Source: Candidatus Bathyarchaeota archaeon (GTDB lineage: Archaea > Thermoproteota > Bathyarchaeia > Bathyarchaeales > Bathycorpusculaceae). Taken from it: 64,000 nt of DNA. The position numbers and the translations under genes were made by a program. The DNA lies in NCBI GenBank assembly GCA_963733095.1, contig CAVTBV010000002.1:78664-142663 (forward strand), given 5' to 3'. Below are positions 30,881-55,490 of this stretch, one piece after another. The notes beneath the pieces are model-generated. The model made no database searches. It was not told the origin of the DNA and was given only the letters and a program-made list of their open reading frames with translations. The first letter of the stretch is position 1. Every line of letters starts with the position of its first letter.

Positions 30881-31812
30881 AACTTGTCGTCGGCACAAGA
30901 GGCAGCAAACTCGCCCTCGCCCAAACCAACCGCACCCTAAACCAAATTAAACAAAAATGTCCCGACATAAATTTTGAGTTGAAAATCATCAAGACCACAG
31001 GCGACAAAGAACATGGCAAACCCCTCTTTTCGATAGATTGCAAGGGCATCTTTGAGAAGGAAATTGATCAGGAAGTTGTCAGCGGCAAAGTTGATTTGGC
31101 TGTACACAGCTTGAAAGACGTGCCTATTGTTGAACAGCAGACTGGTACGGTTTTGGCTTCAATTCCGAAGAGAGATTCGCCATGCGATGTTTTCATTTCT
31201 AAGGATAAAATTCACCTCAGCGCGCTGCCGAAAGGTGCAGTCGTTGGAACTGGTAGCCTGAGACGACTAGCCGAAATCAAATTCATTCGCCCAGATTTAG
31301 ATGTTGAACCCATCAGGGGAAATGTGGACACAAGAATCGGCAAAGTCAAAAAAGGAGAATTGGCAGGCATAATCATTGCGGAAGCCGGTTTAGAGAGAAT
31401 GGATCTAACAAGTGAAATCACTGAGCGCCTCCTACTTGACCAATTTCCATCCGCAGCTGGACAAGGGGCAATAGCAATCGTGGCAAAAGAAGGCAGCACC
31501 GCCGTCATAGACGTTTTACATTCAGTGGAGGACAAAGCTACCCGCGCCGAAATAACAGCAGAACGTCGTTTGGTGCTTGAATTGGAAGGTGGATGCCGCG
31601 TACCTATAGGCGCTGTCGGACAGGCAAAAGGTAACAACCTTTCGTTGTTTGGCTGCATTTTCTCGTTAACAGAGCAAAAGAAAATCAGTGCGTCCGCTAA
31701 AGGAACATTAGCCCAAGCCGATGAATTAGGCAAAAAAGTGGGCGAAGACCTAATCAAGATGGGTGCTAAAGACTTGGAGAAGGAATGGAGAGAAAAATAT
31801 GGTGTATGGTAA
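30877..31812 (+). CDS. hemC: Hydroxymethylbilane synthase
   Basis: GTRGSKLA, AVHSLKDVP, IRGNVDTR, LEGGC. Confidence 0.97.
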   Translation: MKLVVGTRGSKLALAQTNRTLNQIKQKCPDINFELKIIKTTGDKEHGKPLFSIDCKGIFEKEIDQEVVSGKVDLAVHSLKDVPIVEQQTGTVLASIPKRDSPCDVFISKDKIHLSALPKGAVVGTGSLRRLAEIKFIRPDLDVEPIRGNVDTRIGKVKKGELAGIIIAEAGLERMDLTSEITERLLLDQFPSAAGQGAIAIVAKEGSTAVIDVLHSVEDKATRAEITAERRLVLELEGGCRVPIGAVGQAKGNNLSLFGCIFSLTEQKKISASAKGTLAQADELGKKVGEDLIKMGAKDLEKEWREKYGVW

Positions 31813-32554
31813 AGTTTACCTTGTTGGTGCCGGTCCAGGCGACCCCCAACTGCTCACGATTAAAGCGGTTAAGGTGCTAAAAGAAGCAGATGTAGTTATC
31901 TACGATAGGCTCGTTGGAGAAGAAATACTCTGCTTAGCACCTGAAGGCGCCGAGATGATCTATGTTGGTAAGCGCACAGGTAAACATGAGGTACCCCAAG
32001 ACAAGATTACTGAGTTAATAGTTGAGAAAGCGCAGAGCGGCGGCAAGATTGTTCGACTCAAAGGTGGCGACCCGTTTATTTTTGGGAGAGGCGGTGAAGA
32101 AGCCGAAGCGTTGGTTGAGAAAGGCATCGCGTTTGAAGTTGTTCCTGGTGTGAGCTCATCTGTGGCAGCTCCAATGTACGCAGGAATACCCTTGACCCAC
32201 CGAGACTATGCAGCATCAGTCGCGATAATTACCGGTCACCGAGCAGGCGATGCAGAGAAACCCATCGATTGGGTAAGAATCGCTAATGCTGTCGACACTA
32301 TGGTCATTCTTATGGGCGTAGAATCCCTTGAAGGCATAGTCGGCAAGCTACTGGAAGGTGGTATAAGCGTAGACAAACCAGTCGCCATGGTCGAATCCGG
32401 AACCTACCCAAAACAGAGAGCCCTTATCAGTACTTTGGGCAAAATCATCAAAGACGCCAAAAGCAAACAAATCAAGCCACCATCCGTTATAGTTATCGGA
32501 GAAGTCGCAACTTTAGGCAGGAAACTCGCATGGTTCAAAAAACCCCTAACTTAG
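31799..32554 (+). CDS. cobA: Uroporphyrinogen-III C-methyltransferase
   Basis: GAGPGDP, YDRLV, RLKGGDP.IFGRGGEE, GIPLTHR. Confidence 0.96.
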   Translation: MVYGKVYLVGAGPGDPQLLTIKAVKVLKEADVVIYDRLVGEEILCLAPEGAEMIYVGKRTGKHEVPQDKITELIVEKAQSGGKIVRLKGGDPFIFGRGGEEAEALVEKGIAFEVVPGVSSSVAAPMYAGIPLTHRDYAASVAIITGHRAGDAEKPIDWVRIANAVDTMVILMGVESLEGIVGKLLEGGISVDKPVAMVESGTYPKQRALISTLGKIIKDAKSKQIKPPSVIVIGEVATLGRKLAWFKKPLT

Positions 32555-34465: not shown

Positions 34466-34606
34466 ATGGCATCTCTTTGCTTCATTAATCGTTAAGTGTA
34501 ATAAATGTTTTAATCGTCAGCTTATCCATCATAAGGCCATAAAATTTTCCTAAGGGTCTGAATAGCACAGCTTTAAAAGCAAGCACGCCTATGAATGGGA
34601 GGTTTA

Positions 34607-34888
34607 ATGGTGAGTATTTTGGCTCAAAAAGTTCGTGGAAGAATAACTAATTACCGCACAGGACCCAAAGAACAAACATCAAACGAGTGCTTAATTGAAT
34701 TTGAAAATGTTGCATCTGCAGGCTCAGCAAGCAAACTAATTGGGCAAAAGGTTACTTGGAAAAACGGAAAAACAAAGCTTACTGGAAAAATCAGGGGCGC
34801 GCACGGCAAGAATGGAATGGTTCGAGCAAGGTTTAAGCGTGGAGTTCCTGGCCAAGCAATCGGTTCAGTTGTTGAACTGATAAGCTAA
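34607..34888 (+). CDS. rpl35ae: 50S ribosomal protein L35Ae
   Basis: NYR.G...Q, GKI...HG.NG.VRARF..G.PGQA.G. Confidence 0.95.
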   Translation: MVSILAQKVRGRITNYRTGPKEQTSNECLIEFENVASAGSASKLIGQKVTWKNGKTKLTGKIRGAHGKNGMVRARFKRGVPGQAIGSVVELIS

Positions 34889-34931
34889 TTATCTTCTAAA
34901 AATATTTATAATTTTTCAAAAAAAAACTGTT

Positions 34932-35102
34932 TTATAATTCGCCCACATCAGGACCTTCGTAGACGTATTCAATTATTTCGGTATTTCCGTCTTTAACAAT
35001 TACTTGGTAATCTGCTTCGCATATTGGACAGGCGACTATTTCGCCGTCTTTTAAGCCGTCTCGTTTGAAGGTGTTCCCGCATTCAGTACATTTAAGAATA
35101 AT
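34932..35102 (-). CDS. LysW-like zinc-ribbon protein, 56 aa (not in ORF track, no canonical start)
   Basis: IILKCTECGNTFKRDGLKDGEIVACPICEADYQVIVKDGNTEIIEYVYEGPDVGEL; GGAGG then ATT. Confidence 0.8.
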   Translation of the reverse strand: MILKCTECGNTFKRDGLKDGEIVACPICEADYQVIVKDGNTEIIEYVYEGPDVGEL

Positions 35103-35114
35103 AGCTTTAGCCTC

Positions 35115-35423
35115 CTACTCCATTTTGAGGTAGTTGTGGCTTCGGAGCCAGTCGGATTGGTTTTTGCGGTACCGCCAGAATATGTCCCCATGTGTGTCGG
35201 ATTGGAAATCCCATGGCGATACCAATACGATATCGCCTTCTCTGATCCAAACTCGCCTTTTCAGTTTGCCGCGGACTCGGCACATTCGTTCTTTCCCATC
35301 TTGGCATTTAACCGTGATTCTTTCGGCGCCAAGCATCTTAACCGCTACACCCAATACGTCGTTTGAGGAAGGTAAGACCATGCTATCGAGGCTACCCTCG
35401 TTTGTTATTTTTCGTTTACCCAT
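35115..35423 (-). CDS. eif1a: Translation initiation factor aIF-1A
   Basis: MLG..R..V.C.DG..R.CR..GKL..RVWIREGD.VLV.PWDFQ..GDI.WRY. Confidence 0.96.
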   Translation of the reverse strand: MGKRKITNEGSLDSMVLPSSNDVLGVAVKMLGAERITVKCQDGKERMCRVRGKLKRRVWIREGDIVLVSPWDFQSDTHGDIFWRYRKNQSDWLRSHNYLKME

Positions 35424-35910
35424 TTTTTACACCTTTGGCTTACGCCAATTTTATATCAGAATAGTTTTGAGAAAAAGCGGATAAGTGGTCTAACTCTTCC
35501 TCTAAATAATTCTAACTACATCAATAAGGAACGCAACAGGTATATTAGTTTAGCTTAGTTTGTAAGGTTTTTTTTCATGGTTTTTAGATATTTTCTAATA
35601 ATAATTTTTCTAATGACTTGTTTTGCAGAAAACGGCTCGGAAATTACTCCTTTTTTCAAAAACATTTCTTCATCATTCCCTTCTCTTTATGGTGGGAAGC
35701 TCTTTCACGTTGAAGATTTTTTATTCTTCTTAGAATAATCTGATTTAAACATGTGTGTTAAAAACGTGGACTTTTTGCTTATAAACAACCTGATGCGTTT
35801 GTGGAGTAATTTTAAATAAAAACCCGGAATATTGGGGATTTTCGTTTTCAAAAGATAATAAAAAATAAAAAAGAAAATTGTTAAAGATTTTATGATGCTT
35901 AGCTAAATGC

Positions 35911-36051
35911 TTAGTATCTTCGTGGTGGTCTACGTTTTGAGTAGCACTCTCGGCAGTAAACTGGCCTTGTACCGTCTGGCTTGAAAGGAACTTCACATTC
36001 TTTTCCGCAGTCAGCGCAAGTTGCCTTGTGCATCTCTTTGTTATTATACAT
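35911..36051 (-). CDS. CxxC-x17-CxxC protein, 46 aa (not in ORF track)
   Basis: MYNNKEMHKATCADCGKECEVPFKPDGTRPVYCRECYSKRRPPRRY; AGGAG SD. Confidence 0.92.
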   Translation of the reverse strand: MYNNKEMHKATCADCGKECEVPFKPDGTRPVYCRECYSKRRPPRRY

Positions 36052-53530: not shown

Positions 53531-54111
53531 CGTTTCTCCTCCAAGAAATTTTTAATGATTAGTTTACCATCTTCGCAAAGGATGGATTCTGGGTGGAATT
53601 GGACACCGTATATTGGATATTCAACGTGGCGTACGGCCATAATTTCTCCGTCCTCTACGGATTCAGCTGTTATTTGTAGGCATGCTGGAATGGAGCGTCG
53701 CTCGCCAGCAAGAGAGTGGTATCTTGTGGCGCTGAAGGGGTTGCGAACACCTTTGAAGATGCCTTTTTGGTCATGTTTTATAGTGGAAGTTTTGCCGTGC
53801 ATGAGTTTTTTTGCATGGATAACTTTTCCGCCAAACGCGTAGATTATGCCTTGGTGACCTAAACAGACGCCCAATGTGGGTGTTTTCGGGCTTAGGTTTC
53901 GGAGGATTGCGGAGCAGACTCCGAAGTTTTTTTCGTCTTCCGGTGTGCCTGGACCTGGCGATATTACGATTCGGTCAGGTTTTTGCTTGATTATCTCTTC
54001 GAGACTGGTTTGGTCGTTTCTGTAAACGATTACTTCTGCTCCAAGCTCACCTATGTACTGGACAAGGTTATAGACGAATGAATCATAATTGTCAATTACG
54101 ACTACTTTCAT
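53527..54111 (-). CDS. trpG: Anthranilate synthase component II
   Basis: IDNYDSF, SPGPG, GVCLGHQ, QFHPES. Confidence 0.96.
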   Translation of the reverse strand: MKVVVIDNYDSFVYNLVQYIGELGAEVIVYRNDQTSLEEIIKQKPDRIVISPGPGTPEDEKNFGVCSAILRNLSPKTPTLGVCLGHQGIIYAFGGKVIHAKKLMHGKTSTIKHDQKGIFKGVRNPFSATRYHSLAGERRSIPACLQITAESVEDGEIMAVRHVEYPIYGVQFHPESILCEDGKLIIKNFLEEKR

Positions 54112-55490
54112 GGGTGTTTGCCTCCTGCGGCATGTTCGAGAGCTTTCATGAGTGCTTTGGCTTTGTGGTCGGTTTCAAACCATTCTTTTTCAGGAATTGA
54201 ATCCGCTACGATGCCTGCGCCCACTTGAATGTAGGCTCGGTTGCCGTCTGAGAATAGGGTTCGTATGGTTATAGCAAAGTCAGAGTTGCCGTTACAGCTG
54301 AAATACCCTACTGCGCCAGCGTAAGGTCCACGGCGGGAGGGTTCCAGTTCCTCGATTATTTCCATAGCGCGAACTTTGGGTGCCCCCGAAACTGTTCCCG
54401 CAGGAAACACCGCCTTTAACGCGTCAAAACTTTCTAAGCCTTCCTCCAATTCACCCGTAACCTGAGATACGATGTGTTGGACGTGGCTGAACTGGTGAAC
54501 CTGCATAAACTCGGGAACAGAGATAGATCCATACTTGCTGATTCTGCCTACATCATTCCTTGCCAAATCAACCAGCATCACGTGCTCGGCACATTCTTTT
54601 TGGTCTTTTAAAAGTTCTTTGCCAAGGCGCAAGTTTTCTTGTTGGTCCGCTGTGATTGGGGTTGTGCCTGCTATGGGGAAGGTTACTATTTTTCGGTTGT
54701 CGACGCGAACAAGCATTTCTGGGCTGGCGCCTACGATTTGGCGTTTGTCGGATTTGTAGTAGAACATGTATGGTGATGGGTTGATTTGGCGTAGGCTTTT
54801 GTAGAATGTTAAGAGGCTTCCGGTGTATTCGAATTGGAAGCGTTTGGATAGGACAACTTGAAAGATGTCTCCTGCAGTGATGTATTGTTTGGCTTTTTCG
54901 ACGGCTTGCTCGAAATTTTCTTTCGACGTGTTAATTGTAGGCTGAGTATATGTAAAGAGATCTTCAGGTGGGGCAGGCTCGTTTAGCAGTTCAGTTATTT
55001 CCGCAAGCCGATTTTCGCCCCTGAAATAATAATAAGCCTGGTTGATCATGTGGTTAAAAACAATTCCATCCTCAAAAATCCCCATCTCTACATCCGGGAA
55101 CTGGAGGTCGTCTGGTTTTTGGCTGGGTAGTTTTTCGAAGTATCTTACAGCGTCATAAGATATGTATCCTAAGGCTCCGCCGATAAAACGGAAATCCACT
55201 ACTTGATTTTCATAGGGTTGGAGTTGTTCTTGGATGAGTTTGAAGGGGTCGTTTGATTGTTGGATTAGGGTTTGGGTTGTGGTTGTTTTGAGGTTTTTTG
55301 TGGTGACTGAGCCGTTTTTGGCGGTTATGTTGATTTTGGGGTCAAACCCTAAGAATGAGTATTGGGCGAGTTTTTGGGGTCCTTCGATGGATTCTAGGAG
55401 GTAGGCGGTTTTGTATTTTTGGTGGAGTTTTGAGAATATTTCTATGGGTTGGTTTGTGTAGTTGAATTTAACGTAGTTTAGTGGGTTCAT
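54108..55490 (-). CDS. trpE: Anthranilate synthase component I
   Basis: LLES, NPSPY, EHVMLVDLARND, FPAGTVSGAPK. Confidence 0.96.
   Translation of the reverse strand: MNPLNYVKFNYTNQPIEIFSKLHQKYKTAYLLESIEGPQKLAQYSFLGFDPKINITAKNGSVTTKNLKTTTTQTLIQQSNDPFKLIQEQLQPYENQVVDFRFIGGALGYISYDAVRYFEKLPSQKPDDLQFPDVEMGIFEDGIVFNHMINQAYYYFRGENRLAEITELLNEPAPPEDLFTYTQPTINTSKENFEQAVEKAKQYITAGDIFQVVLSKRFQFEYTGSLLTFYKSLRQINPSPYMFYYKSDKRQIVGASPEMLVRVDNRKIVTFPIAGTTPITADQQENLRLGKELLKDQKECAEHVMLVDLARNDVGRISKYGSISVPEFMQVHQFSHVQHIVSQVTGELEEGLESFDALKAVFPAGTVSGAPKVRAMEIIEELEPSRRGPYAGAVGYFSCNGNSDFAITIRTLFSDGNRAYIQVGAGIVADSIPEKEWFETDHKAKALMKALEHAAGGKHP

Follow-up and report, generated by a model that had tools for sequence, protein, structure and literature searches.

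Directly downstream of the initiation factor gene aIF-1A, the Bathyarchaeia genome analysed here carries a zinc-ribbon frame that is, in all likelihood, a separate small gene starting at an ATT codon, the first of two in a row (35102-35100). The stretch of DNA studied, hereafter the window, is 64,000 nucleotides long, and positions refer to it unless a contig (C) of the source genome (G000) is named. A sequence-only reading of the window had remarked that the ribbon has no ATG, GTG or TTG start, that it shares the aIF-1A frame and that GGAGG overlaps the aIF-1A stop codon; by ORF and sequence reading this holds exactly, the overlapping motif being the Shine-Dalgarno (SD)-like AGGAGG. Two explanations had been offered, an AUU-initiated gene or readthrough of the UAG into a fusion protein. 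The comparison with relatives strongly supports the separate AUU-initiated gene: ATG is the homologous codon of 22 of the 80 species, neither the frame nor the aIF-1A stop is constant, an SD core precedes the start, and the protein is under purifying selection. The features of the locus, in the direction of transcription, are the following.

35449..35456, minus strand: TATA-like box ATATAAAA, about 26 nt 5' of the aIF-1A ATG; putative operon promoter, from sequence only.
35118..35423, minus strand: aIF-1A coding sequence, 102 aa, ATG start (PF01176, E 1.9e-22; NF003084, 127.6 bits against a cut-off of 91).
35115..35117, minus strand: aIF-1A stop codon TAG, read from the sequence, preceded by the codons ...AAA ATG GAG.
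35111..35116, minus strand: SD-like AGGAGG, overlapping the G of TAG, 8 nt 5' of the first ATT.
35100..35102, minus strand: ATT, predicted start codon of the ribbon gene, from alignment with relatives.
34935..35102, minus strand: LysW-like zinc-ribbon coding sequence, 56 codons, CxxC-x16-CPxC, C-terminal G-E-L (alignment, LysW matches, dN/dS).
34932..34934, minus strand: ribbon stop codon TAA, read from the sequence.
34918..34926, minus strand: T9 tract, 5 nt 3' of the ribbon stop; putative oligo-T terminator of the aIF-1A-ribbon operon.

Past the aIF-1A TAG, the same frame continues for 60 codons as GAG GCT AAA GCT ATT ATT CTT AAA TGT ... GGC GAA TTA TAA, the product of which would be EAKA-IILKCTECGNTFKRDGLKDGEIVACPICEADYQVIVKDGNTEIIEYVYEGPDVGEL; the translation of the ribbon frame in the window is EAKAIILKCTECGNTFKRDGLKDGEIVACPICEADYQVIVKDGNTEIIEYVYEGPDVGEL. 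Four codons (12 nt) separate the TAG from the ATT, none of them canonical as a start, and the sole ATG, GTG or TTG in the ribbon frame is a GTG four codons ahead of the stop. A public DNA contig of 1236 bases spans 34727-35600 with 0 differences from the window, and the same ATT was seen across many independent assemblies, indicating that it is not a sequencing error. Public RNA contigs, all from one run, span 35321-35495, which is the 5' part of aIF-1A only, with 2 differences. The T9 tract, which we take to be an archaeal oligo-T terminator from general knowledge of archaeal termination, is the probable end of an aIF-1A-ribbon operon, and ATATAAAA is its probable promoter. Two further genes flank this unit. 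On the same strand, 5' of aIF-1A, lies a gene for a 46-aa treble-clef zinc finger with the pattern CxxC-x17-CxxC (35911-36051, minus; PF23477, E 3e-20; TIGR04272), and an L35Ae gene on the plus strand (34595-34888) is convergent with the ribbon gene.

The start codon was compared across 80 Bathyarchaeia species genomes that hold the ribbon; these are Bathyarchaeota or Bathyarchaeia MAGs, except for two records labelled otherwise, they overlap the genus sample described below, and they are kin, so that the counts are not independent. At the codon aligned to the first ATT we found ATT in 37 genomes, ATA in 8, ATC in 2, ATG in 22, TTG in 2, GTG in 1 and another codon in 8, five of which have an ATG or GTG one codon upstream. 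Among the 47 loci with ATT, ATA or ATC (ATH), an Ile codon, either ATT or ATC, invariably comes second. Most of them (32/47) lack any ATG, GTG or TTG both upstream in the open frame and in the 3 codons that follow; 11 have one further upstream, mostly 17-78 codons away and inside the aIF-1A coding region, and 4 have a TTG or GTG no more than 3 codons downstream of the ATH. In the related locus L012 a TAG stands directly before ATT ATT, and the frame therefore opens exactly there. Twenty of the 24 other genomes in the genus sample yielded the ribbon, and the remaining four are 56-97% complete; its start codon is ATT in 10 loci, ATA in 4, ATC in 1, ACG in 1 and ATG in 4; a 21st copy, which is broken, carries ATG. 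In the sister genera ATG predominates, and those loci have no SD. Their TATA-like box stands some 25-30 nt upstream, an arrangement suggestive of transcripts with a short leader or none.

How the gene is annotated follows its start codon. Where ATG is present, gene callers predict 56-aa proteins beginning MILKC, which are found in the protein collection; where it is absent, they give either nothing or spurious extensions of 73-89 aa that reach into aIF-1A in another frame. The sequence is nevertheless conserved as a protein. Among 13 ATH-start genus orthologs the median dN/dS was 0.14 (range 0.02-0.37; 52 of 78 pairs computable), and eight columns are invariant in 36 ribbon sequences (C5, C8, C25, P26, C28, G54, E55 and L56). 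This purifying selection, together with the invariant residues, argues that the ribbon gene is real and expressed as a protein. The ribbon thus has the three features by which we recognised a near-cognate start: no canonical start at or upstream of the conserved N-terminus, orthologs with a canonical codon at that place, and purifying selection. From the alignment we infer that the AUU itself is decoded as the start codon.

One could suppose that the frame is not translated from the first ATT at all, being either a decaying remnant or a gene that starts at a nearby non-canonical codon (the second ATT, say, or the CTT). That the codon after the first ATT is also ATT, and that four ATH loci offer the TTG or GTG just mentioned, would fit a displaced start. 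We regard this reading as very improbable: the dN/dS and the invariance of the four Cys, the Pro and the G-E-L tail exclude decay, it is the first ATT rather than the second to which the ATG of relatives aligns, and the Leu codon varies by species between CTT, CTA, TTA and TTG, so that no conserved start exists there.

The other explanation that had been offered was that UAG is read through, by pyrrolysine insertion or by a suppressor, to yield an aIF-1A-ribbon fusion. In the window the ribbon is indeed in frame with aIF-1A behind a TAG, and Pyl machinery occurs in some Bathyarchaeota (PMC9630628). The alignment of the junction in relatives, which the sequence-only reading had proposed as a check, keeps ATT at the aligned codon in 37 of 80 genomes and conserves neither the aIF-1A frame nor the TAG. 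Among 43 ATH loci lying 11-19 nt behind aIF-1A, the two genes are in the same frame in 21 and in different frames in 22; the in-frame share exceeds the one third expected by chance, yet half of the 18 close relatives (9) have a 12-nt spacer in common. In the same 43 loci the aIF-1A stop is TAG in 30, TAA in 10 and TGA in 3. The spacer between aIF-1A and the ribbon measures 11, 12, 13, 14 or 17 nt in the 18 close relatives (at least 86% identity), a second in-frame stop separates the two genes in the related locus L013, and the ribbon, which lies directly behind aIF-1A in 59 of 80 species, lies away from it in the other 21. In the source genome, a search for PylS (TIGR02367) reached 28.6 bits at best, the cut-off being 178.15. 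None of the 33 tRNAs found by ARAGORN, an incomplete set, has a CUA anticodon, and TAG is an ordinary stop, ending 358 of 1568 ORFs of at least 200 aa. With mixed frames, three different stops, no PylS and ordinary use of TAG, the fusion reading is refuted, and we leave it next to no chance. A pyrrolysine or UAG-readthrough gene was accordingly rejected as a class for this locus, since neither PylS nor, in the incomplete tRNA set, a CUA anticodon was found, and an in-frame TAG is not conserved in relatives.

How would an AUU be chosen? An SD core of 4-5 nt lies 7-11 nt upstream of the ribbon start in 18 of 20 genus loci with the GEL tail, and the remaining two (L006 and L007), both starting with ATG, have GGAG 14 nt upstream. 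In the source genome an SD 4-mer was present at -20 to -4 of 94 of 201 reliable ATG starts, compared with 10.7% of 2957 internal ATGs, indicating that SD-led initiation is normal in this organism and that the 8-nt spacer of the ribbon is typical. The 3' end of the 16S rRNA was not found in the assembly by a search with a short conserved motif. The 12-nt gap between the aIF-1A stop and the ATT also allows termination-reinitiation coupling; in Haloferax volcanii, according to a review, such coupling fades only beyond about 30 nt (PMC12548453).

In the mechanism that we propose, the ribbon would be co-transcribed with aIF-1A, and the AGGAGG would position ribosomes on the first ATT. Ribosomes that have just finished aIF-1A, 12 nt away, might also supply initiation events. 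We infer both roles, that of the SD and that of coupling, from the arrangement of the junction. The initiator tRNA would pair imperfectly with AUU, and the protein would begin with Met. Archaeal aIF1 reportedly destabilises initiation complexes on non-AUG codons (PMC6237735), and aIF1/SUI1 is encoded in the source genome (C11:16257-16475). Efficiency at the AUU could therefore be low, and the output of the ribbon gene would likely be below that of aIF-1A. The presence of aIF1/SUI1 also means that the near-cognate starts are not caused by loss of this fidelity factor.

By homology the ribbon appears to be a diverged paralog of LysW, the amino-group-carrier protein. Its matches to LysW models all fall below the curated cut-offs (PF21344, 24.9 bits against 27; NF041070, 26.6 against 75; TIGR01206, 18 against 53.2), and many ribbon orthologs carry a precomputed PF21344 match. 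A profile of 36 orthologs found LysW as the best full-length matches in the PDB (5k2m_E, E 7.8e-5; 3wwl_A, 3.1e-4), zinc-finger arrays outscoring it only via repeated 12-residue matches. The AlphaFold model of the ribbon had a pLDDT of 80.2, and its top six Foldseek matches were LysW chains (TM 0.59-0.72; E 1.2e-3 to 0.12, none at or below 1e-3). Like LysW/ArgW (PF21344, NF041070/TIGR01206; PDB 3wwl, 3vpb, 5k2m), the ribbon is a zinc ribbon of about 55 aa with the pattern CxxC...GE(I/V)VxCPxC and an acidic C-terminal tail.

The tail itself sets it apart. The C-terminus of LysW reads EDWGE, as in the true LysW loci compared here, and its terminal Glu is the attachment site. The ribbon ends instead in ...EGPDVGEL, with an invariant D-x-G-E-L in place of EDWGE, the G-E-L being invariant in the 36 sequences and followed in some by one to three further residues (L, LL, SK, TK or LK). 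No LysX/ArgX ATP-grasp gene lies beside the ribbon among ORFs of at least 90 aa in 13 loci of about 3 kb. The ribbon thus has neither the EDWGE tail nor the LysX/ArgX and LysZYJK neighbours of a LysW/ArgW carrier, its neighbours being aIF-1A, L35Ae, aIF-2alpha and unrelated genes. Elsewhere in the source genome are two LysW genes of the ordinary EDWGE kind, one of them beside an ATP-grasp gene; the RimK-family genes of this genome are on other contigs, one adjoining a true LysW. Some true LysW genes (EDWGE; L023, L024 and L028, from other families of the order) were themselves seen to have no ATG, GTG or TTG before the first Cys, with ATA, ATC or CTG as the sole near-cognate candidates.

Gene position ties the ribbon loosely to translation genes. 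In 3 of the 13 loci where it lies away from aIF-1A, it is near L35Ae (L010), near aIF-2alpha, two genes downstream (L012), or near aIF-1A on the other strand (L037); in the rest it lies among unrelated or unknown genes. Such company bears on the more ambitious part of the AUU proposal, namely that the codon is a selected regulatory device. AUU is the start codon of infC (IF3) and of pcnB in Escherichia coli, and a rare ATT start reportedly occurs in Enterococcus faecalis ebpA. By analogy with infC, the output of the ribbon would report the stringency set by aIF-1A and aIF1, and the ribbon would act in or on initiation. Several results fit this. All 37 ATT-start ribbon loci are directly behind aIF-1A, compared with 9 of the ATG-start loci (the other 13 being elsewhere), an ATH codon is kept in 47 of 80 species, the relocated copies lie near the translation genes just named, and aIF1 discriminates against non-AUG codons in archaea (PMC6237735).

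We nevertheless consider the infC-like reading unlikely. Near-cognate starts in the genus extend beyond initiation-linked genes (dnaG with ACG, rps11 with CTG; see below), ATG and ATH alternate at the ribbon start among close species, nine ribbon loci behind aIF-1A use ATG, and the genomes compared are kin. The adjacency of ATT and aIF-1A may merely reflect the tolerance for weak codons of an internal, SD-led cistron, given the ATG loci of the sister genera with their TATA-like box and no SD. Homology, moreover, places the ribbon with LysW and not among the known initiation factors. A complex prediction for aIF-1A and the ribbon gave scores of 0.00 and 0.00, which speak neither for nor against an interaction. 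The likeness to infC lies in a conserved AUU behind an SD that would start an intact, selected gene in a translation-initiation context. The differences are that the host is an archaeon with eukaryote-type aIF1, aIF1A and aIF2, that the AUU gene is a LysW-like ribbon downstream of aIF-1A rather than a fidelity factor, and that AUA, AUC and AUG alternate with AUU among species. In an arrangement of the infC type the factor that discriminates is the one started by AUU; here the product started by AUU is the ribbon, the discriminating factor aIF1 is encoded elsewhere, and aIF-1A starts with ATG.

The putative use of AUU is not peculiar to the ribbon gene, near-cognate codons standing also at the start positions of dnaG and rps11 in the genus. 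Stop-to-stop ORFs of the source genome were compared with 1.2 Mb (51%) of the genus genome G003, giving 713 ortholog pairs. In 179 of these G003 has ATG at the start of the alignment; at that place the source genome has ATG in 120 pairs, TTG in 9 and GTG in 5. Without any canonical alternative it has a near-cognate codon in 3 pairs (ACG in 2, ATT in 1) and some other codon in 4; in a further 4 a stop lies downstream of the aligned position, and the remaining 34 offer a canonical start nearby. Since this signal was small and noisy, dnaG and rps11 were followed across relatives; the further near-cognate candidates of the comparison were each seen once only.

The dnaG gene (archaeal primase-like; C7, about 31806-32290, minus; loci L076-L105) has ACG at the start position in 22 of 23 genus loci; one genus genome has ATG at the homologous codon, as do 3 of 7 loci from other families. 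Twenty of the 22 ACG loci have no canonical start upstream, the first canonical codon lying 18-126 codons inside the conserved protein; three loci of other families keep the ACG but have an ATG two codons upstream. For rps11 (C12, 222218-222625, minus; loci L231-L260) the source genome and 10 other genus genomes have GGAGG-N9-CTG AGC. At the start position 11 of the 24 genus loci have CTG and the other 13 TTG; the 6 loci of other families have ATG or TTG there. No canonical start precedes the CTG in 9 of the 11 loci that carry it, and L235 has a TAG two codons before the CTG. With such starts in dnaG and rps11, an infC-like sensor role for the ribbon is possible but unsupported.

Other genes that seemed to have no canonical start were set aside. 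For trpA, an ABC permease and others, the upstream similarity came from overlapping neighbour genes; one further case was an RNA gene that had been translated as if it coded for protein, and others came from apparent 1-nt indels in G003. The candidate in C12, an NAD-binding epimerase-like gene (reverse strand, 493748-494588), was explained by an apparent frameshift near its N-terminus; the G003 copy is intact (TTG ATC ACT GGC GCC AGT GGT...), and the gene in the source genome is either a pseudogene or an assembly error.

Three more observations were made in the same genomes. A small zinc-ribbon ORF, KTPKVEIHCPKCGSS...CSYCGEIFYF..., at C13 447786-447945 (plus) is conserved in G003; neither copy has an ATG, GTG or TTG, and both carry ACG as second codon behind the stop that lies upstream. 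A second aIF-1A paralog (LGKKKVLSEGAIGELVYP...; C7, reverse strand, 156809-157163) has an apparent TTG start and is conserved in G003. In the window, a short out-of-frame ORF, MGNRLWHNANTNHNEPTKLR followed by its stop, at 55530-55468 (minus) overlaps the start of trpE (ATG at 55490, stop ending at 54108). The first six codons of this ORF, which read MGNRLW and include one Trp, are conserved in G003, whose trpE has no canonical start for 148 codons; it is a candidate leader peptide or coupling ORF.

For starts of this kind the literature gave only hints. Ribosome profiling in H. volcanii placed about 30% of putative alternative initiation sites at near-cognate codons, which were set aside in that study (PMC7261190). 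The Bathyarchaeia cases resemble near-cognate initiation in eukaryotes and H. volcanii in that single-base variants of AUG would be used with a eukaryote-type apparatus. They differ from the alternative sites of H. volcanii in that the near-cognate codon, behind an SD, is the only start of conserved main genes in dozens of species. Among annotated starts, switches from AUG to AUU amounted to 1 in 61,358 (PMC5622118), annotation being biased against non-canonical starts. In the literature outside subscription journals and supplements, we found no account of AUU, AUA, ACG or CUG being conserved as start codons in Bathyarchaeia or in ammonia-oxidising archaea.

The practical meaning of the finding is that standard gene callers and annotation miss the ribbon gene, or extend it falsely, wherever ATG is absent, and the true N-termini of dnaG and rps11 in the genus are likewise mis-called. 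If SD-led near-cognate initiation is routine in Bathyarchaeia, and in Asgard archaea too, archaeal proteomes would be systematically mis-annotated, at about one gene in a hundred, and archaea with eukaryote-type factors would lend themselves to work on how start-codon stringency is set by aIF1, aIF1A and aIF2. The broadest proposal joins two claims. Start choice in Bathyarchaeia would be relaxed and guided by the SD, with AUU, AUA, AUC, ACG and CUG as sole starts of conserved, even essential genes; and the aIF-1A-ribbon operon would be a stringency sensor, in which acceptance of AUU would limit how much of the acidic-tailed, LysW-derived ribbon is made, and the ribbon would feed back on initiation with aIF-1A or aIF-2. 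This combination is a long shot. The ribbon itself appears to be an undescribed LysW-derived family, whose recurrent place next to initiation-factor genes is a testable lead.
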